Source: Candidatus Altimarinota bacterium
GTDB taxonomy: Bacteria > Patescibacteriota > Gracilibacteria > UBA1369
Direction: 5' to 3'
Length of the DNA: 32,000 bases
Assembly: GCA_041659405.1 (NCBI GenBank)
Contig: JBAZYK010000007.1
Location: forward strand, 1 to 32,000
Each line of letters starts with the position of its first letter. The stretch's first letter is position 1. Below are positions 2,523 through 21,176 of the stretch, in pieces. Made by a program: the position numbers and the translations under genes. Below the pieces are notes generated by a model, which made no database searches, had not been told where the DNA came from, and saw nothing but the letters and a program-made list of their open reading frames with translations.

Positions 2523-4408
2523 TTACTTTCTAGCCGTAGGGCTGTAAATAAAGGGGGATCCGATGATTATTCGCTGCAGAGGTCCGCTTAATTTATATAG
2601 ATCGAGTATCTGACCCGGTGGGTTTTCGGGGGCACTCGTATTTGGCGCGACTTGAGTAGACGCATTTGATGGTGTGATGATCGGGGTCGGTACTTGGGTT
2701 GGTGTTGGCTGGAAGTAAGCAGCAAAATCATGTTGAACATTTAACCACGCTTCTCCAACATATTGGCCCTTATTATAATACTTGAAGAAATTGGTTTGAT
2801 TATTTACAAACCAGCCGCAATCCGGACAATTTCCGGAATAAACATCTATATCGTTTGAATCTAATTTACTCAGGAAAGATAGGCCCAGGTTCTTACCATT
2901 TATAAACGCCAGAACTATAGAACCTTTTACGTTCTCTATAAAATTTCCGTTAGCGCAACCCCAGGTGAGCATGAAAACGGGCAAGTTAGCAAGATTGGAA
3001 AAGTCACTTGCGGTTAAACCCCAAACCACAGTCGGGTCTCCGTGAGAATGCAAATAAGCTACCTCCGGACCTTTAGCTAATTCCGCAAGAAGAGCTGCCT
3101 TAAAAGGAGCAAGGTTATCGACGGCATCCGGCGTGATATCTATAGAATTTTCTGTTCCATAGACAGTTAGTCCAAGATTAGGAATGGACAAATAATGATT
3201 AGGGCCTGGATATGGGACATGTACAGCCGATACCGCCCACTTTGCGGGCACGGTTTGTTTAGTGAAAAATTATGATGCTTCTGGAAGTAAGCTCTTAATT
3301 GATTGATATGATTGTTGAGATCTGTCGCCGGAAAGGTTGATTTTATCCAACCGGTATATATTTCAGGTCCTCCATGTGCGCCATAACTATCATAACCATA
3401 ATAATGCCCCAAGTTATTTTGCTTAAAGCTGGCATCAAGATCCTCATAAAAGTACATAAAAGGCGCCAAATGATTGCTATCAAAGGGCTGTTCATACAAG
3501 GCGTAAGGAATATCGCCGACAAAAACAGCTCCACCTAAATTAAGGCAACCGCTACTATCAGGTTGGCATTCTTTGATGAGCAAATTCCTGATATCAAGCG
3601 GCGTGTAGGTTATTGAATTCTGAAGTTGAATTACGTCTACTTTGATTCCCAAGTTAGCGAAGACATCATTTTGAAAATTATCTACCTCCGGCTTTAAAGC
3701 GTCGTAAACGTTTTTGTAAATTATGACAACGGCTCGTTTGTTTACGTTATCTATCTGCAGTGCATTGTAAATCAGTTGTGCCAATTTCCCGCGAGTCATT
3801 CCCTGGTTCGGGAAGATGCTATTTTGACTGTCAGGTATCAACCATTCCAGATTTTTGCCATATTGAACATATTGTGTGTACCATTGGTTGGTAAAGGCAT
3901 CAGTATAAGGATTTTCAGGAACTGCCACATGCGAAACATCAACGTTTCCTGCCTTAATTAACATTTTTAAATTTTCCACCAGATTTACAGTTTGTTCTGG
4001 TTTAAAAGTTCCATCCGGATAGCCGCTGATTATTCCTAAAGCGGTAGCTTTATTTAAATATGGATAATACCAGGCATTCCAATCTTTTACGTCTTTGAAG
4101 TCTGCGTTTGAACCGCTATCAATTGCCGGTTGTCCTTGGATTTTAGATGCTCCAAGAATTATTTTTAAAGCTTCCGCACGGTTAACAATCCGGTTTGGCT
4201 TAAAAGTTCCATCAGGGTATCCGGAAATTATTCCCTTTGCTTGAAGGAACATAATCTCTGTGTAGTATGGGTTGGTTTTAGGAACATCGCTAAAACCTGT
4301 GCCCGTATCAATAGCAAAAACACTTTGCATTTGAGAAACTAAAATAAGGCCGGTTAAGATTGCCCCAACAATTGCGCCGCCGGATACTATTGGACGAGTT
4401 GTTTCCAT
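2523..4408 (-). pseudogene. SLH-domain surface protein with a C-terminal clan-CD (gingipain/caspase-like) cysteine peptidase domain, split by a frameshift
   Basis: ORF 3167-4408 has a signal/TM segment and three SLH-like repeats (FSDVPKTNPYY...GIISGYPDGTFKP, FKDVKDWNAWYY...GIISGYPDGTFKP, TDAFTNQWYTQY...). ORF 2523-3251 continues in the -1 frame with an 85-nt overlap and carries YLHSHG and MLTWGCANG (candidate His/Cys dyad). The second frame opens right at an A5/T5 homopolymer (3266-3270). Confidence 0.6.
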
Positions 4409-5706: not shown

Positions 5707-6138
5707 ATGATGGACAAATCTCATTACTATCATGGTGCTGCCGTTGTTTCTTTGTTGGAAAACGAGAATGACTTTTCCATAAGCAAGAAAGGGTTTTTGG
5801 GTTATGTTGTGAATGATAAAATTTTTATTTTTCTGAAGTATACAACTAAAGCAAGAACGCCTTGGAGATTCACTTTTGATCAAGAAGACATTGATCGCTG
5901 CTTAAAGATGTCATCAGAATATAATGATGTTGCTGTTGGCTTGATTTGCGGAGGTGATGGGATTTGCGGTTTAAAATGGAATGAGGTGCGATGTCTTTTA
6001 GAAGATAAGCCCGGTTGGATATCCGCAAAAAGAAAACATAATGAAAGTTATGGCGTTGCTGGTTCTATCACTGAACTAGAAAAAAAAGTGCCTGTTGGTA
6101 GATGGTCAATTTTTATTTCTGAAATGATAAAGAATTAA
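5707..6138 (+). CDS. Hypothetical protein, first gene of the Z1/Dcm/HNH operon
   Basis: 143-aa ORF (MMDKSHYYHGAAVVSLLENEND...KYTTKARTPWRFTF...). I recognise no motif. Its stop lies 10 nt before the next start. Confidence 0.6.
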   Translation: MMDKSHYYHGAAVVSLLENENDFSISKKGFLGYVVNDKIFIFLKYTTKARTPWRFTFDQEDIDRCLKMSSEYNDVAVGLICGGDGICGLKWNEVRCLLEDKPGWISAKRKHNESYGVAGSITELEKKVPVGRWSIFISEMIKN

Positions 6139-6148
6139 TATTATATTT

Positions 6149-8161
6149 ATGGAAACAAATCCAAGAAAAATAATTCATGATGGACAACAAACTAATGAGG
6201 CATTAGATGTGCTTGAAGTCGAAATTGGAAATCGACAGTCGCTTCATGCTATCGCCGAGAGGGCGGGCAGGATTTTGGAATATGCAGTTGACCCAGTCGC
6301 TGGTTCGACAGAACCAAGCTACGGACTCCTTTATGGCTTGATTCAAAGTGGGAAAACGAGTGTGATTACTGTGACGGCAGCAATGGCTGCTGATAATGGT
6401 TTTAAGTGCATTATTATACTCACTTCGGATATCAATCTTTTATATGGTCAAACACTTCAACGCATTCGTAGTCAGCTTCGCGGACTAACAGTCCTTGGTA
6501 AGTCCGATTGGGATGACCATTCTCGGTTTGAGCGGCAATTAAGAATGTCACCATTCGCAATTGTTTGTTCCAAAAACTCAAGTCATCTTAAAAATCTTAT
6601 CGATGCTTTCAAGAAAGTTGGTTCTAGTGGGGCTCGTGGTTTAGCTACTTTGATTATTGATGATGAAGCTGATCAGGCCAGTTTGAATACTAACACGCAG
6701 AAAAATGCAAAAAAGAGAACTGAGGAAATTAGTGCTATTAACAAGTACATCACCGAACTTAGACAATTTTTTCAGATTAACACGTATCTGCAAGTGACTG
6801 CGACACCCCAAGCACTGTTTTTGCAGAGACCAGATGGTTTGTACCGTCCATCTTTTACAGTATTAAGTGAGCCGGGTGCAGGTTATGTAGGAGGAGAAGC
6901 ATTCTTCGAATCTGAATCAAAACTTTTACGATACACTAATCTGGATGAGGTTGATGAACTGAAGTCTGGCTATCAGCCAAATCCAACACACAAAATCCCT
7001 GTTGGATTGAGAGATTCCGTTTTGAGTTTTCTAGTTGCTGCGACTGCAAGAAATATAAATTATCCGAGCGAAAATTTTTCGTTTCTTTGTCATATCAGTC
7101 ACACTAAAATCGATCATAAGCATGTAGTTAGTCTAATTGATTCATTTAGGGAAGACACTATAAACGCGTTTAGAGATAAGAAATCATCTGCTTTTGAGAA
7201 GTTAAAGAAAGATCTGTTTATGGCTTATGAGGATATTTCTAAAACTGAGCCCGTGATGCCTGAATTTGAAAAAATTCTCGAACGAATTGAGTTCTTGTTG
7301 CGAGGTGCAAGCATAAAAGAAATTAATTCGAATTCGGATGAGGCGGTGAAGCCAGATCATGTGTATAGTATTTTTGTCGGTGGCAACAAACTTGGAAGAG
7401 GCGTGACTATTCCTAATTTGATTACCAGTTATTACGGAAGAAATCCGAAACGACCTAATTCTGACACTGTACTTCAGCACGCTCGTATGTATGGTTATAG
7501 AGAAAAGCATGTTGGGGTTACTCGCTTGTTTCTTCCGGAAAAATTGGCCGAACATTTTCGTATAATTCATCAGATGGAAAAAGCTCTGCGAGAATTGGTG
7601 AGTAAATACCCGGAAGGGAAATTTGAAGGTATTTATTTGTCATCCCCGATGAAGGCAACTCGATCTAACGTTTTGGATCCGAATTCTATTGGCGTTTATA
7701 TTGCTGGCGGATGGGTGAATCCAAGATATCCACTCAGAACCAAAGAGATTTTGCCAGTAACTGAATGGCTCGATGAGAAGTTTGTCGCTTATGATAACGC
7801 AAATGAATATTTCGAGACTGACATTGACTCAATCATAGAGATAATACAAAAATGCAAACATGACCCTGATGAAGGGGCTGAGTTGTGGAATCCTAAGACT
7901 TTGGGGGCGGCACTCGAGAAAATAAAAACTCTAAAAGGTTCTAGGGCATATATACGGGTTCGACGTGGTAACGATCTTAATGCGCCTCGTCGCGAAACTC
8001 AAGGGTTTTACTCTGGTGGTGAAGATAAACTGGTACCCGAAGATGCTGTAACTCTTTTCATGTATCGGTTGAAAGAAAGTCATCGAGGTGAGCCTGTATG
8101 GTTACCCCAACTTCGCTTTCCTGAAGGTAATTATGCGATCGCTTTTAGTTTTGAAGATTAA
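6149..8161 (+). CDS. Z1-domain protein with an N-terminal P-loop/DEAD-like NTPase
   Basis: 670-aa ORF. Walker A GLIQSGKTS, Walker B-like LIIDDEADQAS and a TATPQA motif. The C-terminal segment GGNKLGRGVTIPNL...DTVLQHARMYGYR matches the Z1 family signature (GG.KLSRG.T.EGL...DTL.Q..RWFGYR) as I remember it. Confidence 0.75.
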   Translation: METNPRKIIHDGQQTNEALDVLEVEIGNRQSLHAIAERAGRILEYAVDPVAGSTEPSYGLLYGLIQSGKTSVITVTAAMAADNGFKCIIILTSDINLLYGQTLQRIRSQLRGLTVLGKSDWDDHSRFERQLRMSPFAIVCSKNSSHLKNLIDAFKKVGSSGARGLATLIIDDEADQASLNTNTQKNAKKRTEEISAINKYITELRQFFQINTYLQVTATPQALFLQRPDGLYRPSFTVLSEPGAGYVGGEAFFESESKLLRYTNLDEVDELKSGYQPNPTHKIPVGLRDSVLSFLVAATARNINYPSENFSFLCHISHTKIDHKHVVSLIDSFREDTINAFRDKKSSAFEKLKKDLFMAYEDISKTEPVMPEFEKILERIEFLLRGASIKEINSNSDEAVKPDHVYSIFVGGNKLGRGVTIPNLITSYYGRNPKRPNSDTVLQHARMYGYREKHVGVTRLFLPEKLAEHFRIIHQMEKALRELVSKYPEGKFEGIYLSSPMKATRSNVLDPNSIGVYIAGGWVNPRYPLRTKEILPVTEWLDEKFVAYDNANEYFETDIDSIIEIIQKCKHDPDEGAELWNPKTLGAALEKIKTLKGSRAYIRVRRGNDLNAPRRETQGFYSGGEDKLVPEDAVTLFMYRLKESHRGEPVWLPQLRFPEGNYAIAFSFED

Positions 8162-8163
8162 TT

Positions 8164-9210
8164 ATGAAAATTGAAAACAAAAAACTTACTGCAATAGATC
8201 TATTCTCCGGTTGTGGAGGATTAACTCTAGGTTTAAAACAAGCTGGTTTTAATGTGATTGGTGCCGTTGAAATAGATTCTCTTGCTGTAGAAACTTATCG
8301 GGTCAATCATTCTAAAGTAAATATATGGCACAAAGATATCAGAAAATTAACTGGTACAGAAATACTTGAAAAGCTCAAATTAAAAAAAGGCGAACTTGAT
8401 TTATTGGCTGGATGCCCACCATGCCAAGGATTCTCTTCAATGAGAACTCGTAATGGTAAAGAAGTGAAAGACGCAAGAAACGATCTTATTTTTGATTATT
8501 TAAGATTAGTGAAAGAACTGCTTCCAAAAACAGTCATGATGGAAAATGTTCCTGCTTTGGCTGAAAATCGAAGAATGAAAAGGTTTAAAAAAGAACTGGA
8601 GGATTTGGGATATGAATCAAATGGCACTCCACTTGTTCTTAATACTGCTCATTATGGTGTGCCTCAACGTCGACGAAGAATGATATTAGTCTCTAGTCGT
8701 GTCGGAAAGATTAATTTACCAGAAGGAACTGCTGAAAAAGTTACAGTAAGCGATGCGATTGGTGGTATGCCTCGTCCTGGTGAAACAGGAGATCCTTTGC
8801 ATGATATAAAAGAAAAGAGAACTCCTAAGGTTTTAGAAATGATAAAGCTGATTCCTAAGGATGGAGGAAGTAGAAGTGATCTTCCCAAACGTTTGCATTT
8901 GGAGTGTCATAAAAAATTCCCTGGGGGCTTTAAAGATGTTTATGGAAGAATGGCGTGGAAGAATGTTTCTCCTACCATAACTGGTGGCTGCATAAGTCCT
9001 TCGAAAGGACGTTTTCTCCATCCTTCACAGAATCGTGCAATTACTCTTCGTGAAGCTGCGCTTTTACAAACTTTCCCAAAAGATTATTATTTTTCTCTTA
9101 AAAAAGGTAGGCAGGGTGTTGCTTTGATGATAGGGAATGCTTTACCTCCAGAGTTTATTAAACAACATGCCATTGCTATAAAAAAATCTCTTTTGAAATT
9201 ATATTCATGA
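8164..9210 (+). CDS. dcm: DNA (cytosine-5)-methyltransferase
   Basis: 348-aa ORF with motif I DLFSGCGG, motif IV GCPPCQGFS, motif VI ENVPAL, motif VIII QRRRR, motif IX REAALLQTFP and motif X GNALPP. It starts 2 nt after the Z1 stop. Confidence 0.92.
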   Translation: MKIENKKLTAIDLFSGCGGLTLGLKQAGFNVIGAVEIDSLAVETYRVNHSKVNIWHKDIRKLTGTEILEKLKLKKGELDLLAGCPPCQGFSSMRTRNGKEVKDARNDLIFDYLRLVKELLPKTVMMENVPALAENRRMKRFKKELEDLGYESNGTPLVLNTAHYGVPQRRRRMILVSSRVGKINLPEGTAEKVTVSDAIGGMPRPGETGDPLHDIKEKRTPKVLEMIKLIPKDGGSRSDLPKRLHLECHKKFPGGFKDVYGRMAWKNVSPTITGGCISPSKGRFLHPSQNRAITLREAALLQTFPKDYYFSLKKGRQGVALMIGNALPPEFIKQHAIAIKKSLLKLYS

Positions 9211-10223
9211 TTGATAGATCGGTAATCATTGGAAATCTTACTTGGAATGCTGCAGGGTGGACTAATGCCTATGTAAATCCCAAGGCAGGGCATGTTTATG
9301 CAAGAAGTCATGCAGGGCATGAATCATTGAATTTTAAGTTTGATAAAAAAAATCTTGATGAAGAGGATTCTGTTTATGGCTTCTTACAGTGGACAAATCC
9401 GCCAAAGGACTTTGGTAATGGGGGTATTGTAGTCTTTTCGAGCAAGAATTCGGTAAACAACAAGAATTTGATTGTTGGAATATATTGTGACGTGAAAATA
9501 TTATTACCGCCTGTTGAAACTCTTTACGAAGGCTTTGAGGATGGTGTTTTAGCTTCCAATCTCCGAGCAAAAAGGGCTCTTTCTATGCGTTTTCCGCAAG
9601 AACTGGATTTGGAAAAATATTTGGGTGGGAAAAAGCGGGTGGGCCAAATTGGGTTTCTTCTTTCAGATGTCGATGTGGCAAAACAGGTAATAGTTGATGA
9701 GATTCAAACTCTTTCTATCTCTGGACTCAAATCGAATGATGCGAAAAAACTTGGTGATATTTATAAATTTATTACTGGTGAGGAATATAATTTTGAAAAT
9801 TTTAAAAACCGTGATGAACAGGAACAAAAAGAAATCGAAGAGAAAATAAAAACTGATTCTGAGGCTGATGATGCCAGGTATTTTGCTAATCTTTCACCTG
9901 TTGAGCCTGAAATGATTGAGTTGAAAGGGAAGATGTATAAAAGAGATAATGTAACTATTTCTCGCCTCAAAAGAGCCAGAGGTTATAAATGTCAGATATG
10001 TGGTTACTTTGTTTTAAAAAGGAATGGTGATCGTTATATTGAAGCGGCTCATATCAAGGCAAAGTCACAGAAAGGAAATGAGATGCCAGACAATATTATT
10101 ATTTTGTGCCCGAATCATCATAAAGAGTTTGATTATGGTGAATTAAAGATTAACGAGCAGACGAAGGATAGTATTTTGTTTCGTCTTAATTCAAAAGAAT
10201 ATTCTATTAACTTAATGGTGTAA
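9207..10223 (+). CDS. HNH endonuclease with a ~250-aa uncharacterised N-terminal domain
   Basis: 338-aa ORF. Its ATG overlaps the dcm stop (ATGA). C-terminal CQICGY...EAAHIKAKSQKGNEMPDNIIILCPNHHKEFD is an HNH (beta-beta-alpha-Me) motif. The N-terminal part (...GFLQWTN...GGIVVFSS...LIVGIYCDVKIL) matches no family I recognise. Confidence 0.8.
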   Translation: MIDRSVIIGNLTWNAAGWTNAYVNPKAGHVYARSHAGHESLNFKFDKKNLDEEDSVYGFLQWTNPPKDFGNGGIVVFSSKNSVNNKNLIVGIYCDVKILLPPVETLYEGFEDGVLASNLRAKRALSMRFPQELDLEKYLGGKKRVGQIGFLLSDVDVAKQVIVDEIQTLSISGLKSNDAKKLGDIYKFITGEEYNFENFKNRDEQEQKEIEEKIKTDSEADDARYFANLSPVEPEMIELKGKMYKRDNVTISRLKRARGYKCQICGYFVLKRNGDRYIEAAHIKAKSQKGNEMPDNIIILCPNHHKEFDYGELKINEQTKDSILFRLNSKEYSINLMV

Positions 10224-10268
10224 ATGGGTGTTAGATCCTACCCCCCAGCCAAAATTTCCCCCTTCCCC

Positions 10269-10649
10269 ATGAACCAATCCAAACTTTCTATCATTATCAA
10301 CAAATCTTTGGCGGAGGTTTTTGAGTTTGTTATCAATCCAAACAATACGCCTTTGTGGTTTGATTCCATTGTTAAAGAGGTTGCTGATTTGCCGATTGCG
10401 ATGGGGACAAAATATGTGAATTTTAATGCGGCCGGGCAAAAAGGGGAGTATCTTGTTTCGAAATTTGAACCTGATGCGATTTTTCAGCTCGACTCGGTCG
10501 ATTCCGGTTATAAGGTCCGCTATACCCTGAAAGCAATTTCCAAAAATGAAACCGAGCTGGAATATTTGGAGTGGGTCGATTTTGGTGACCTGGAAGCCCC
10601 TTGCGCGATAAATGTTCTTCAGGGATTGAAGAATGTTTTGGAGGGGTAG
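10269..10649 (+). CDS. SRPBCC (START/polyketide-cyclase-like) family protein
   Basis: From the internal ATG: MNQSKLSIIINKSLAEVFEFVINPNNTPLWFDSI..., typical of the N-terminal strand-helix of SRPBCC proteins. The track start at 10224 adds a Pro-rich tail encoded by a C-tract. Confidence 0.55.
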   Translation: MNQSKLSIIINKSLAEVFEFVINPNNTPLWFDSIVKEVADLPIAMGTKYVNFNAAGQKGEYLVSKFEPDAIFQLDSVDSGYKVRYTLKAISKNETELEYLEWVDFGDLEAPCAINVLQGLKNVLEG

Positions 10650-10729: not shown

Positions 10730-11458
10730 ATGATGATTAAAGCTCCAGAAAAGTTTACCGAATTTGATTTTTTTATGGATGAGGACGTTCGAGCACGCCG
10801 CATTGGTATTTTGTGCGTGGAAAAACGTCTTACTCCGGCATTAACGCAGGCGTTGTTCCGTGTAAGAGAAAACGCTCAATCGTTTCATGCAAAAAGGATT
10901 CAATCAGATGTCAGTAAAACCGAGGAACAAAGAGCTATAGAACTGGGGTCGGTATCGAAACAAATACGTGAAGTAAAATGGTCCAGTATAAATCTGATGC
11001 GATCTTTCATTGCGCAGGAATTCATTGAACAGTATTTCCATTATTGGAATAAAGGGCCTCTGCCGATCATGTTTTTCAATTTTCCTTTTATTGATGATCA
11101 TTTAAGCTCAATAAACAATTTTTTTGAAAAATTGGGTAGTTTAAATATTGATGCCCTGAAAGATTTGCATTGTTCCGAATCGGTCTTTTTTCTGGACTAT
11201 TTTAGCACTGCAACCGGCTATAAATTTGAAGAAAAAGTCAGAGATAGCAATAATTTATCAAGATGCTATAGGATTGACAGTAGAGCGCACGATTTGATGC
11301 AGCTTACCGATTTACTTCTAGGTATAACCACTTACATCAAGACCGGTAAGCACACTGGAAGTAGGGCAAAGTTGAGTCTCGTTAATAAGTTCAATTATTT
11401 CCAAAAGAGCTATAACAACAAAAAAACGCATTCTTTGCAGAGCGTTTATCAACTATAA
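10730..11458 (+). CDS. DUF3800-like hypothetical protein
   Basis: 242-aa ORF. N-terminal FFMDED and C-terminal IDSRAHDLMQLTDLLLG resemble the DUF3800 acidic N-motif and the DS..s..LQ.AD.L.g C-motif. A TATAAT lies at 10705-10710 upstream. Confidence 0.5.
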   Translation: MMIKAPEKFTEFDFFMDEDVRARRIGILCVEKRLTPALTQALFRVRENAQSFHAKRIQSDVSKTEEQRAIELGSVSKQIREVKWSSINLMRSFIAQEFIEQYFHYWNKGPLPIMFFNFPFIDDHLSSINNFFEKLGSLNIDALKDLHCSESVFFLDYFSTATGYKFEEKVRDSNNLSRCYRIDSRAHDLMQLTDLLLGITTYIKTGKHTGSRAKLSLVNKFNYFQKSYNNKKTHSLQSVYQL

Positions 11459-13076: not shown

Positions 13077-13502
13077 ATGGTTAACAATATTTTTGAAAAG
13101 ATCAGGCATATTAATGAGCATGGTCAGGAATTTTGGAGTGCCAGGGAACTGATGCCTGCTTTGGGATATACCGAATGGAGAAAATTTGAGGGTGTAATTG
13201 CGAAAGCTAAAGAAGCGTGCAAATCCAGTCAACAAGCACCATCCGACCATATTGGCGGCGCCGCCAAAATGGTTTTAGTAGGTTCTGAAGCCGAAAGAAA
13301 GGTCGATGATTATTTTTTATCGCGTTACGCCTGCTATTTAATCGCTCAAAATGGTGATCCAAGAAAAGAAGAAATCGCATTTGCTCAAACTTATTTTGCG
13401 ATTCAAACTAGAAAACAGGAATTGCATGAAGATTTGTTGGAAGATCATAAACGGGTTTCTTTGCGCGGAGAGATGACTGTTCAGAATATCCACTTTATGT
13501 GA
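13077..13502 (+). pseudogene. dinD: Truncated DinD-like (DNA-damage-inducible protein D family) gene, N-terminal half only
   Basis: The 141-aa ORF aligns by eye with the first ~140 residues of E. coli DinD (...WSARELM..LGY..., KAKEAC, LSRYACYLIAQNGDP, AQTYFAIQTRKQEL, KRVSLR). The family is ~270 aa. I found no convincing continuation in any frame of 13503-13700. Confidence 0.6.
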
Positions 13503-14099: not shown

Positions 14100-14924
14100 A
14101 TGACTATTATACAAAAAATAACAGTTAAGGGGACTGAAATTGTAATTTTTAAACAAAGTGAAAATGATTACATTTCATTGACCGATATTGCTCGTTATAA
14201 AGATCCTGAACGAAGTGACTATATTTTGCAAAACTGGATGAGAAGCAGAGCTACTATTGAGTTTTTAGGCTTATGGGAGAGAATTAACAATCAGACTTTT
14301 AATTCCATCGAATTCGATGGAATTAAAAATGAATCTGGACTGAATAGCTTTTTTCTTAGCCCAAAGCGTTGGATTCGAGCTACCAATGCTATTGGCATTA
14401 TTTCGCAAACTGGTCGATATGGCGGCACCTTTGCCCATAAAGACATTGCTTTTGAGTTTGCGACTTGGCTTTCGCCTGAATTTAAGCTTTATTTGATCAA
14501 GGAATTCCAACGACTCAAAGAGGAAGAAAATCAGCGTCTTAACCTTGGTTGGGACATTAAGCGTAATTTGGCGAAAATTAATTATCGTATTCACACAGAT
14601 GCTATCAAAGAGTATTTGATTCCGGCTCATCTTTCCGCTGCTCAAATTAATATTACTTATGCCAGTGAGGCCGATGTTCTTAACAAGGCGCTTTTTGGTC
14701 TGACGGCTAAAGAGTGGCAAACTGCCAATCCAAAAGAGGATGGTAATCTGCGCGATCATGCTTCTGTGGTACAGCTGGTTTGTTTGACAAACCTGGAGTC
14801 ATTAAATGCCGTGTTTATTCGCCAAGGGCTTGTTCAAAAGGAAAGATTGATTCAACTAAATGAAGTCGCGATTGTACAGATGCGCTCGCTTGTTGGAAAT
14901 CCCACTATTAAAAAATTAAAGTGA
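14100..14924 (+). CDS. KilA-N domain-containing protein
   Basis: 274-aa ORF ...YISLTDIARYKDPERSDYILQNWMRSRATIEFLGLWERINN...GRYGGTFAHKDIAFEFATWLSPEFKLYLIKEFQRLKEEE, the conserved KilA-N family pattern. Confidence 0.85.
   Translation: MTIIQKITVKGTEIVIFKQSENDYISLTDIARYKDPERSDYILQNWMRSRATIEFLGLWERINNQTFNSIEFDGIKNESGLNSFFLSPKRWIRATNAIGIISQTGRYGGTFAHKDIAFEFATWLSPEFKLYLIKEFQRLKEEENQRLNLGWDIKRNLAKINYRIHTDAIKEYLIPAHLSAAQINITYASEADVLNKALFGLTAKEWQTANPKEDGNLRDHASVVQLVCLTNLESLNAVFIRQGLVQKERLIQLNEVAIVQMRSLVGNPTIKKLK
14304..14321. repeat. Perfect palindrome TCCATCGAATTCGATGGA (copy 2, extends to 24 nt at 14301-14324)
   Basis: Read directly. It encodes NSIEFDGI within the KilA-N gene. Confidence 0.9.
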
Positions 14925-17764: not shown

Positions 17765-20482
17765 TTAATACATCACATCCACTTGGCCGGTATTCGTGTC
17801 GCCAAGTTTGAAGTGGAAGTTTAGGGTTAGCCCGATTTTTGTGGCGGTAAAATCTCCGTTGACGTTACTGTCGATTTTGTAGCCACGACCTTCCAGAGCG
17901 GTTACTATTTTCCCGATATCGTCTTTTGTGACGAGCCGGCTAAATCTATACGCAACCCATCCTCCGGCAAAGTCATCCCATAACTTTACGTCATTGAATA
18001 TTCCCTTTAGGACGGGCATTAATTCATCATTGATTATGATCCCTTTTGGGCTTGTGGCTGTTATTGCATTGGTCTCGTCATATTTCATTTGAGGCCGTGT
18101 TTTGGTGGTGGGAGTTGCGCCGCCCGTACCTGTGCCGGTACCGGTTCCTCCAGTAAAGCCGTTCGTGTTTGTTGCTACACAAATTTGAGTTTGATAAGTC
18201 GTGGCTTCCGAAGCGGTTGTGCTTACTCCTGTTTTATTGCTTAGCTTGATGGTTCTGGCAATGTTATCCATGGGATATTCCACCACCAATTCCGGCGAAG
18301 TTAATTTATTTGTAACAATATAAGAACTGACGTCACTTGCTTCGGTGTCGCTGAAATCCGCAACAAGGTCGCTGTTGCCCAAATTTCCATTTACGTCCAA
18401 CTTCATAATCATCGCTTCGGTATATTCCAGGATTGAAGTTAGAACCCGGTGTTTAATTCCCGTATGCCATGTTCCCGTTATTGCGTAGCCGGAATCTGCG
18501 GTTTGCGTTATGTCGTATCCATCCAAATCTTTTGTTCCACCAATGTTTTTGCCCCATTGATAATTAAAATTCTTGTCCAGTTTTATTAAGACAATATTTT
18601 TAACCATTAAACCTGATTGCCAGGATTCTATCTCTTTTGAAATTGCGTCCAAAGCTTTTTTGGATTCGGGAGTTTCAGGGCTCATAATTGGATATTTTGC
18701 GTAGTAATCCGCCATCATTTGATCGTATATTTTTGATTGGGCCATGGTATCTTTATTGACGTATCCGCCAACAAGATTATTTCCCATGATGATATATCCG
18801 TCATCGGAGGTTTTTTTAATGACAACGTCTTCTAAAAACCTTTTTACTTTAATGGTTCTTGCCCACTGCAGTTTTCCGGTTGAATCCGTTTTAACGGCTA
18901 CCAGGCTCCATTCTTTAAAAGCTTCCGTTTGTAATTTGGCGAGTTCGGCGGTTGAAATAGCGGAAAAATAACTTCCAAGGGCAATATATCCGCCGTCATT
19001 GGTTTGATCCGCTGTCAGGAATTGGCCGAATGCCAAATGCATTTTGTTTGGGGTTCCCACCGTGAAGCTTTTTCCATCCGGGTTCATTATCAAATTTGGA
19101 ATTTCAATCGGTAAATTTTCCAGGCCGGTAGCCCATTCAAATTCGCCATTTGGTTTCAATTTAACCAATGCGGGTACTTTCTGGTCATTTTCTTCTACAA
19201 GCTTGACATTGCCGATCAAAATATAACCACCGTCCGCAGTTTGTTTTACGGATTTAGTCATTTTTTCATCACCTTCAATTTTTTTGAGCCAGTTGGTTTG
19301 GCCGTTGGCATCAAAATTTCCAAGCAACACAGTGTCATTTATGTCTGCTACATCCGGTTGTCCGACCAAGACTCCTGTCGATCCGGACATTACAAATCCA
19401 CCATCTTTGGTTGGGAAAAGTTTAGTCGCGATGTCCGTGCTTTTTTGGCCTACTGTTCTTGTCCAAATGTTGTTTCCGTTGCCATCAAGTTTTACTATAA
19501 AATTATCTCCCTGTCCTTCAAGCGTTTCCTGTTCCGCGTCTGTTATAAATTCGTTACTGACTTCGCCGGCTGCGACAATGTTGCCGTCTGTAAGCTGAGT
19601 AATTGCGTAGCCCTCGGAACCGCCATTGTCAAAAAGTTTGCTCCACTTTTTATTTCCGTTACTGTCGGCTTTAATAAAAAACATACTTGGTCCTTTCATT
19701 TCGTTATGATTCACCGTGTGTCCCGTTATGGCATATTCGCCATCCAAAGTTTGAGTTATTGCGTATGTATCAGCGGTGTCTTTCAGTCGGTATGATTTTA
19801 CAAATGTGGTTGTTTGCAGGGTTTGCGGATTTCCGGTAAAGAAATTTGTTGAACTTTTGGTTGTGATCCCTTTCTTTAATCTATAAATCATTTCGGCCAT
19901 TTCCCCGCGTGAAATATTTTTCGTAACGGAACAAATACTTACCGGAATGGCCTTTAGCTCTTCCAGTTTTTCTACAAATGATTGATACCAAATTTCTTTT
20001 TGAGAGGTTTGATAACCAAATGCGTTTACAATAATTTTGGAAGACTCGGGAAAATTTATATAGTTTCCCGGCTTAAAAGAGCCATCGGGATAACCGTTTA
20101 CAATTCCGTTATTGGAAGCCACGCAGACATATTGATAAAACCAGTCACTATTATGAATATCGGGAAAAGTTTTGGTTGGCGTGCATCCTGAAATTTGTTC
20201 TTTTGTGAAATTTGCCCCAATAATAATCTTAACAAATTCGGCGCGATTGATCTGGTTATCCGGCCTATAGGTGCCATTTTCATATCCGCTGACAATGCCC
20301 TGTGATTGAACATAATTTACAGCGTCAAAAAATGGATTGTTCGAACTCAAATCCGAAAATATTGAGTTCGGCGTATTGGTATCTACGGCAAACAAAGTCA
20401 CAAACGGAAGAGGAATGGCCAAAACGAATGCGCCAAAAAACGCCAGGCTCAGCAGTGGGAATGTGAAATGTTGTTTTTTCAT
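17765..20482 (-). CDS. Large SLH-domain surface protein with repeated beta-propeller-like modules
   Basis: From the internal ATG at 20482: MKKQHFTFPLLSLAFFGAFVLA (signal). SLH-like repeats (FSDLSSNNPFFDAVNYVQSQGIVSGYENGTYRP, FPDIHNSDWFYQYVCVASNNGIVNGYPDGSFKP). There are at least 7 copies of a T-x-DGGY/ITG-type motif (ITQTLDGEYAITG, ITQLTDGNIVAAG, KQTADGGYILIG, DQTNDGGYIALG, KKTSDDGYIIMG, ITQTADSGYAITG). Confidence 0.75.
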   Translation of the reverse strand: MKKQHFTFPLLSLAFFGAFVLAIPLPFVTLFAVDTNTPNSIFSDLSSNNPFFDAVNYVQSQGIVSGYENGTYRPDNQINRAEFVKIIIGANFTKEQISGCTPTKTFPDIHNSDWFYQYVCVASNNGIVNGYPDGSFKPGNYINFPESSKIIVNAFGYQTSQKEIWYQSFVEKLEELKAIPVSICSVTKNISRGEMAEMIYRLKKGITTKSSTNFFTGNPQTLQTTTFVKSYRLKDTADTYAITQTLDGEYAITGHTVNHNEMKGPSMFFIKADSNGNKKWSKLFDNGGSEGYAITQLTDGNIVAAGEVSNEFITDAEQETLEGQGDNFIVKLDGNGNNIWTRTVGQKSTDIATKLFPTKDGGFVMSGSTGVLVGQPDVADINDTVLLGNFDANGQTNWLKKIEGDEKMTKSVKQTADGGYILIGNVKLVEENDQKVPALVKLKPNGEFEWATGLENLPIEIPNLIMNPDGKSFTVGTPNKMHLAFGQFLTADQTNDGGYIALGSYFSAISTAELAKLQTEAFKEWSLVAVKTDSTGKLQWARTIKVKRFLEDVVIKKTSDDGYIIMGNNLVGGYVNKDTMAQSKIYDQMMADYYAKYPIMSPETPESKKALDAISKEIESWQSGLMVKNIVLIKLDKNFNYQWGKNIGGTKDLDGYDITQTADSGYAITGTWHTGIKHRVLTSILEYTEAMIMKLDVNGNLGNSDLVADFSDTEASDVSSYIVTNKLTSPELVVEYPMDNIARTIKLSNKTGVSTTASEATTYQTQICVATNTNGFTGGTGTGTGTGGATPTTKTRPQMKYDETNAITATSPKGIIINDELMPVLKGIFNDVKLWDDFAGGWVAYRFSRLVTKDDIGKIVTALEGRGYKIDSNVNGDFTATKIGLTLNFHFKLGDTNTGQVDVMY

Positions 20483-20519
20483 TTTGTGATAATTATGAAG
20501 TGCGTTGTCCCGTGGATCC

Positions 20520-21176
20520 TTAATCTTTATTATGAAAGCTGAATAAAATATTATCCAGGGTTGTCCCATAGGTTCCGGCGTATTCCTTAAGTACCATTTC
20601 ACGGAATGTTGAAATTGTACCGCTATCATTTAAAATGCCGATTTCTTTAAAACGCCAATTTTTGGTTCCATCTGCGTATGATCCGGCGGCGAAGTAGCTC
20701 TCGCTGAGGTCGTTTGTCTTATTGTCCAATTCAAAAAGTTCGAGTTTGTATTTGGAATTACTTTCGAAAGATTTTTTAATGTCGGTTAATACGAGTGCGC
20801 GCCCACCTGTTTTGGTTAGGCGGGGATCATTTGACATCTGGATGCTAACGAAGGCTTTACCCGATGGTTCATTGATGAATTCCGCGGGAGCCTTTTTTTG
20901 GGAATCATCAATAATCCAATCTTTTGGATAATTCATAATGTAGCCGAAGCGGGATTTGAATTCCAATGTGTTGTCGGTGGCCTTGGTTTGAGTTTCTGTT
21001 TGAGTTTGCGTCTGCGTGGTGGTGGTTTTGGCTTGAGTATCGTTGGTAATCTGTTTGTTTTCTTGTGGCAAAATTTTGCCGAATTTACCAAAATTTATGG
21101 CAGCGATTGTGATTATTGCGATAATTGTGATGGCTGCGATTGCGATGCCTATTATGATTGTTTTTTTATTTTTCAT
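20520..21176 (-). CDS. Hypothetical membrane-anchored secreted protein
   Basis: 218-aa ORF with an N-terminal TM segment (IIIGIAIAAITIIAIITIAAI) and a TQTQTQTETQTK linker. Confidence 0.6.
   Translation of the reverse strand: MKNKKTIIIGIAIAAITIIAIITIAAINFGKFGKILPQENKQITNDTQAKTTTTQTQTQTETQTKATDNTLEFKSRFGYIMNYPKDWIIDDSQKKAPAEFINEPSGKAFVSIQMSNDPRLTKTGGRALVLTDIKKSFESNSKYKLELFELDNKTNDLSESYFAAGSYADGTKNWRFKEIGILNDSGTISTFREMVLKEYAGTYGTTLDNILFSFHNKD

Follow-up and report, generated by a model that had tools for sequence, protein, structure and literature searches.

The stretch of DNA analysed, referred to as the window, comprises 32,000 nucleotides (nt) of contig JBAZYK010000007.1 (positions 1 to 32,000, forward strand) from a metagenome-assembled genome (MAG) of Candidatus Altimarinota bacterium (GenBank assembly GCA_041659405.1). 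Four co-oriented open reading frames (ORFs) in this window encode a protein of 143 amino acids (aa), designated small143, a motor protein, the C5 methyltransferase Dcm and an HNH protein, also called gene 4 (Table 1). A preliminary description, made from the sequence, had presented them as one operon and as a candidate restriction-type defence module. The four ORFs, their coordinates, their spacing and the motifs quoted for them were all found again in the sequence, where the junctions read as a 10-nt gap, a 2-nt gap and a 4-nt ATGA overlap between Dcm and HNH. All four ORFs are real genes with many homologues each, and three of them keep their synteny in about 70 genomes. The start of small143 is probably the second ATG, at 5710, because its homologues begin with MIDK or MLDK. 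Comparison across genomes sets the HNH gene apart from the rest, and the locus is treated below as a three-gene restriction-modification (R-M) module, with small143 as candidate R subunit, followed by a gene of another kind.

Table 1. Genes, motifs and domains at the locus.
Feature	Position (nt)	Strand	Remarks
small143	5707-6138	+	143 aa
Motor (H/N-type subunit)	6149-8161	+	670 aa
Walker A variant GLIQSGKTS	6335-6361	+	Gln in place of Gly
DDEAD	6659-6673	+	
Motif III TATPQ	6797-6811	+	
H/H motif (H315...H323)	7091-7117	+	two His eight residues apart
Motif VI QHAR, aa 443-446	7475-7486	+	short QxxR
C-terminal DNA-binding-type domain	~7655-8128	+	
Dcm, C5 methyltransferase	8164-9210	+	348 aa
HNH protein (gene 4)	9207-10223	+	338 aa
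N-terminal beta-rich domain of HNH protein, aa 1-155	9207-9671	+	no known family
Zinc-ribbon HNH domain, aa 262-314	9990-10148	+	C262, C265, H282, N296, C301, H304/H305
Adjacent small ORF	10224-10649	+	141 aa from first ATG; weak DUF3284 match (1.2e-3)

In the family membership test, the motor scored 132.5 bits against a cut-off of 25 over aa 287-489. Walker A and B lie in its DEAD lobe within aa 63-175, and residues Q66, S67, G68, K69, T70, D171-D175, H315, H323 and Q443-H-A-R446 were invariant in 23 relatives. The spacing of H315 and H323 equals that of H282 and H290 in H.CglI, and the motifs agree with those defined for that family (PMC5861437). By BLASTP, the motor is 30% identical over aa 54-658 (E 7e-73) to the protein of the Neisseria gonorrhoeae NgoAVII locus, which is encoded beside a C5 M gene and an R gene with PLD and B3 domains. 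A profile built from the 23 relatives matched the crystal structure of the H.CglI C-terminal domain (6F1S, E 1.1e-3, residues 2-163 of 178); a single-sequence search gave no match. Judged by sequence, the motor is a homologue, along its whole length, of the H/N subunit of the CglI and NgoAVII restriction enzymes, a family for which biochemistry is available (PMC4267653, PMC5737866, PMC5861437). PADLOC Helicase_II (REBASE 'Type II helicase domain protein') covers aa 58-660 at 7.4e-99, a far better fit than the MzaC equivalog of the MZA system, which reached 107 bits against a cut-off of 1500; MutL/GHKL and AIPR genes were absent from the neighbouring ORFs of the window. The earlier statement that the locus is not BREX or DISARM stands, and it can be extended to MZA.

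No family match in Pfam, NCBIfam or PADLOC was obtained for small143 or for 21 of its relatives, in agreement with its earlier classification as a protein of unknown family. Its 93 close homologues are all unnamed and without Pfam domains, and an exhaustive profile search gave a family of 782 clusters at 50% identity. Nearly all relatives are stand-alone proteins of 140-160 aa. Two rare longer ones were seen: in P0307 (591 aa) two small143-like domains stand in tandem ahead of about 300 aa without Pfam match, and P0302 (313 aa) has one such domain and a Cys-rich tail of 170 aa. The AlphaFold2 model of small143 (pLDDT 93.7) consists of one alpha-beta4-alpha-beta2-alpha-beta2-alpha domain. Its top Foldseek match in the PDB was the archaeal Holliday-junction resolvase Hjc (E 0.016, probability 0.98, TM 0.53/0.59), followed by RecU and the tRNA-splicing endonucleases (EndA), with EcoRV, PvuII and HincII at low probability. 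The predicted structure suggests, with modest scores, a restriction-endonuclease-like fold. Conservation was computed over 76 loci and 134 cluster representatives, and near-invariant positions were Y8, G10, N/D36, K44, Y45, P52, W53, F55, C81, D84, G85, R109, Y115 and G119. K44 is an invariant Lys on the third strand, where the lysine of (D/E)xK is expected, the residues having been placed relative to the PD-(D/E)XK motif from secondary structure and not by superposition. Profile comparison by hhalign detected no similarity of small143 to R.NgoAVII (probability 0.4%) and no relation to the N-terminal domain of the HNH protein.

A scan with small143 alone, using one genome per species, returned 80 loci from Candidate Phyla Radiation (CPR) groups, Alpha-, Beta- and Gammaproteobacteria, Acidobacteriota, Nitrospirota, Planctomycetota, Gemmatimonadota, Chloroflexota and others. 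Of 74 loci, 68 have a C5 methyltransferase no more than 6 kb away from small143. The small143 gene is adjacent to the motor gene and inherited with it, and the two proteins co-evolve in a mirror-tree analysis, a correlation that reflects linkage as well as interaction. ORFs in these loci were called from the most upstream start, so that negative gaps overstate the overlaps. A fourth recurrent family is Vsr (PF03852), encoded directly after Dcm in 52 of the 80 loci; about a dozen loci hold the three genes alone, without vsr or another conserved neighbour. The HNH family of the window was met in a single module locus, L065, by a weak match (E 2e-5) located upstream of small143. This gene (9142-9894, from a Hyphomicrobiaceae MAG) encodes a 250-aa HNH protein about 100 nt upstream of small143 that is distantly similar to the window's HNH domain; apart from the window's own, no further McrA-like HNH was detected next to the module. 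The conserved unit comprises three genes, small143, motor and Dcm, and not four.

The preliminary description had called Dcm an ordinary C5 methyltransferase, which motifs I (FSGCGG), IV (PPCQGFS), VI (ENVP), VIII (QRRRR), IX (LQTFP) and X (GNALPP) confirm together with matches to PF00145 (4.5e-63, 214 bits), TIGR00675 (1.6e-51) and PADLOC MTase_II (4.2e-92). It is the protective M component of the module. The window Dcm is 50-74% identical to that of most module loci, and those loci are devoid of the window's HNH family; by sequence it belongs to the module's own Dcm lineage, which argues that it did not arrive as an HNH plus Dcm pair. Its co-evolution with the pair of small143 and motor is weak (r 0.3-0.5), and sometimes something else takes its place: eight loci have a cassette, variously oriented, that encodes a different Dcm together with Vsr and a winged helix-turn-helix (wHTH)-HNH protein.

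Type III Res proteins combine a superfamily 2 (SF2) motor with a PD-(D/E)XK nuclease, and an arrangement like that of Type III, with recognition supplied by Dcm, could be imagined here, given that 143 aa is small for recognition plus cleavage and that the conserved Dcm lineage travels with the module in most loci. The weak co-evolution of Dcm with the other two proteins does not fit such a role and, in CglI and NgoAVII, the methyltransferase acts separately while the R protein reads the site (PMC4267653), so that this arrangement is regarded as quite improbable. The resemblance to Type III and Type ISP enzymes remains one of parts: an SF2-type motor, a module of restriction-endonuclease fold, a methyltransferase and ATP-dependent long-range communication, which for the present locus is suggested by analogy from the genes. 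It differs from them in that the nuclease-fold part is a separate polypeptide and in that the methyltransferase is a C5 enzyme and not an N6 Mod.

The frequency of Vsr would be compatible with a repair role of the module. Most relatives indeed resemble dcm-vsr pairs in having vsr right after Dcm, but the window has its HNH gene at that position, and a Vsr profile run against the six-frame translated window found neither a vsr gene nor a remnant. The motor is homologous to a restriction-enzyme subunit along its whole length, the module is distributed patchily over many phyla, and its neighbours are those of defence islands (in the window Mrr, a DUF3800-like/PDC-M04A protein and Bro-N/KilA-N proteins), all of which leave a repair role with very little credence.

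The HNH protein carries the residues CQICG...EAAHI...CPNHH. Its AlphaFold2 model (pLDDT 91.2) shows a beta-rich N-terminal domain, a helical linker and the HNH domain. It matches HNH_2 (4.1e-9) as well as HNH, PADLOC mREase_IV (1.6e-7) and, below the family cut-off, NCBIfam PT-DNA_restrict (2e-15). Sequence searches of the PDB gave TagI (9.8e-7) and EcoKMcrA (2.9e-6), and Foldseek gave EcoKMcrA (4.5e-4), then ScoMcrA and TagI, all through the linker and HNH part. C262, C265, H282, N296, C301 and H304 are invariant over 120 family members, which leaves the catalytic His and the zinc ligands intact. The N-terminal domain had been noted as one of unknown family, and this was upheld: it has no Pfam match in 24 members at E ≤ 10 and no PDB match by sequence or by Foldseek, and by sequence it is not an SRA, EVE, NEco or SBD domain.

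At least 454 members of the HNH family were found, and the full-length architecture of N-terminal domain plus HNH is conserved at 43-52% identity to the window protein. The module was absent from all 79 HNH-family loci, of which 43 extend at least 1.1 kb upstream of the gene and 30 at least 2 kb. None of the 79 holds a C5 methyltransferase, and when the neighbouring genes were clustered, every family was confined to three loci or fewer. Six contexts annotated with Pfam comprised Shedu-type, toxin-antitoxin and transposase genes, AIPR, a Type I R-M operon, insertion sequence (IS) elements and housekeeping genes; no cognate methyltransferase is adjacent in these six, one HNH gene lying downstream of the Type I R-M operon. 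The window is the exception in having a methyltransferase beside a gene of this family, and the HNH gene there occupies the position after Dcm where relatives carry vsr. Modification-dependent endonucleases are typically fusions of a sensor and a nuclease (PMC6765204, PMC7897488). Gene 4 shares with the Type IV HNH endonucleases EcoKMcrA, TagI and ScoMcrA/SprMcrA the HNH subtype, the layout of a sensor-like N-terminal domain followed by HNH, and the occurrence as a lone gene elsewhere; it differs from them in that its N-terminal domain falls in no known sensor family (SRA, EVE/PUA, NEco, SBD, wH). Because of this layout and of the family's occurring alone, gene 4 is, by analogy, most probably a defence nuclease, either modification-dependent in the Type IV manner or autonomous in another way. 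It is probably co-transcribed with the module and functionally separate from it.

The four families were not found together in other genomes; by the criterion that the preliminary description had set for itself, its single four-gene unit is refuted. A four-gene machine including the HNH protein still has some points in its favour, namely the tight packing with the ATGA overlap between Dcm and HNH, the uniform composition across the genes, and a core module in which no protein bears a canonical nuclease active site. It is nevertheless considered improbable, since the HNH family is missing from 79 of the 80 module loci and the single match is weak and lies upstream, since the module occurs in 0 of the 79 HNH loci, including the 43 with at least 1.1 kb of upstream sequence, since about a dozen module loci do without any additional nuclease, and since HNH members retain their full-length architecture in unrelated contexts.

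We favour, with somewhat more confidence than doubt, the reading that the locus is made up of two things, a three-gene module of the CglI/NgoAVII type with small143 as candidate R subunit and an independent McrA-like HNH gene. The module shares with CglI and NgoAVII an H/N subunit whose homology spans the entire protein and includes every signature motif as well as the C-terminal domain, a C5 methyltransferase encoded alongside the H gene, and, next to H, a second, small gene co-evolving with it. The coupling of the methyltransferase is loose here, and in CglI, too, M works on its own (PMC4267653). Differences lie in the gene order, which is M-R-H in those systems and partner-H-M(-vsr) here, and in the partner. 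The PLD nuclease (PF09565) and B3-like (PF20731) domains, both of which show up in an actual NgoAVII-type locus, occur in no tested ORF of the window locus; in their place stands a 143-aa protein with a predicted restriction-endonuclease-like fold and no detectable similarity to R.NgoAVII. Swapping of the R subunit has precedent. In one further system used for comparison, the partner is EcoRII-like and much larger than small143. By homology with CglI, the methyltransferase would mark the host sites, and DNA would be cut after long-range movement or collision, with small143 as the likeliest cutter. Complex formation, target recognition, a nuclease activity of small143 and an anti-phage role are proposed for the module on the same basis.

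Several observations weigh against this reading. The fold match of small143 is modest (best E 0.016, TM 0.5-0.6), and the protein is devoid of the canonical acidic residues of PD-(D/E)XK enzymes, the D...(D/E)xK motif being absent from strands 2 and 3. Position 42, two before K44, is a hydrophobic F, Y or L; position 36 is N in 94 of 134 representatives (about 70%) and D in 20 of 134 (about 15%); and D84, the sole invariant Asp, sits in a later hairpin. Because these acidic residues are missing, small143 could, to judge from its sequence, be non-catalytic, and it has either a non-canonical site or is a protein that does not cut. As to gene 4, its start and the Dcm stop overlap by 4 nt without a break in composition, and HNH proteins of other kinds adjoin the module elsewhere (wHTH-HNH in eight loci, the 250-aa protein in L065), so a functional link between HNH and module in this lineage is still conceivable.

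If small143 were a non-catalytic sensor, the cutter would be encoded elsewhere or next door. The missing acidic residues fit this, as does an invariant set rich in aromatic and basic residues (Y8, K44, Y45, W53, F55, R109, Y115). In many loci Dcm is followed by a nuclease gene whose type differs from one locus to another (Vsr 52 times, HNH in the window), and some loci carry the wHTH-HNH protein or a 172-aa DUF6998-like protein that by eye resembles a PD-(D/E)XK nuclease. PD-(D/E)XK enzymes with relocated acidic residues exist, however, Vsr is the usual companion of Dcm and needs no special explanation, and about a dozen loci hold just the three genes. Moreover, where relatives have been characterised, the nuclease is the product of the gene next to H (PMC4267653). 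A sensor role is held to be unlikely.

The module is a widespread, unstudied variant of CglI/NgoAVII in which small143 stands where the nuclease subunit usually does. Its mechanistic class is already known; what is new is small143 as candidate R subunit, for which Pfam, NCBIfam and PADLOC hold no model, and with which the motor is always paired in a large family spanning many phyla (the 782 clusters mentioned above). Should small143 prove to be the subunit that cuts or recognises the DNA, it would be among the smallest known, with a non-canonical active site, and current defence annotators would overlook the R gene in a common type of R-M system, reporting an orphan methyltransferase and a lone 'helicase' instead. 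For annotation, the locus also illustrates that tight packing and a start/stop overlap are no proof of membership in a system.

Of the earlier claim of one operon, the close spacing was confirmed. The packing, on the other hand, runs on past 10223, as the first ATG of the next ORF, at 10224, abuts the HNH stop, and promoter and terminator scans gave matches fewer than or equal to those in shuffled sequence, so that the operon call derives from the spacing. GenBank starts this next ORF at an internal Met near nt 10269 (126 aa). It has a homologue in 0 of the 80 module loci and is probably unrelated to the module.

Upstream in the window, a 299-aa protein (265-1164, +) with a C-terminal Mrr_cat domain (1e-25) is a Type IV-like Mrr nuclease; its gene lies 4.5 kb upstream of the Dcm-containing module, and a 109-aa ORF (1161-1490) overlaps its stop. 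Downstream, the 242-aa protein at 10730-11458 (+) has a weak DUF3800 match (2.6e-3) and a PADLOC PDC-M04A match (2.7e-8) over just 60 aa, and may be a further defence gene of the same island. Bro-N (1.4e-12) and KilA-N (1.3e-21) domains, typical of phages and mobile elements, were found just downstream at 13077-13502 and 14100-14924 (+). The window yielded no tRNA gene, and none of the tested ORFs was recognised as an integrase. CglI lies in prophage CGP3, but the idea of a similar phage or plasmid location for the module was dropped, as small143 had no match in plasmids, phage records or IMG/VR viral contigs.

GenBank applies translation table 25 to this MAG, in accordance with the label Gracilibacteria. 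The TGA of Dcm is then read as Gly, giving a protein of 353 aa ending in ...LYSGLIDR; the Dcm/HNH overlap would become 19 nt, with the Dcm C-terminus altered by just five residues. Under code 11 the long ORFs of the window, which reach 954 aa, are as complete as their homologues and hold no in-frame TGA; for that reason table 11 fits better, and code 25 was rejected for the window. For this contig, either the label 'Gracilibacteria' or the code assignment seems wrong. Two proteins with SLH domains, encoded at 3167-4408 (-) and 17765-20629 (-) (3.4e-29 and 9.7e-24), one of them 954 aa long, are unexpected in a small-celled CPR lineage and give a further hint on the true taxonomy.

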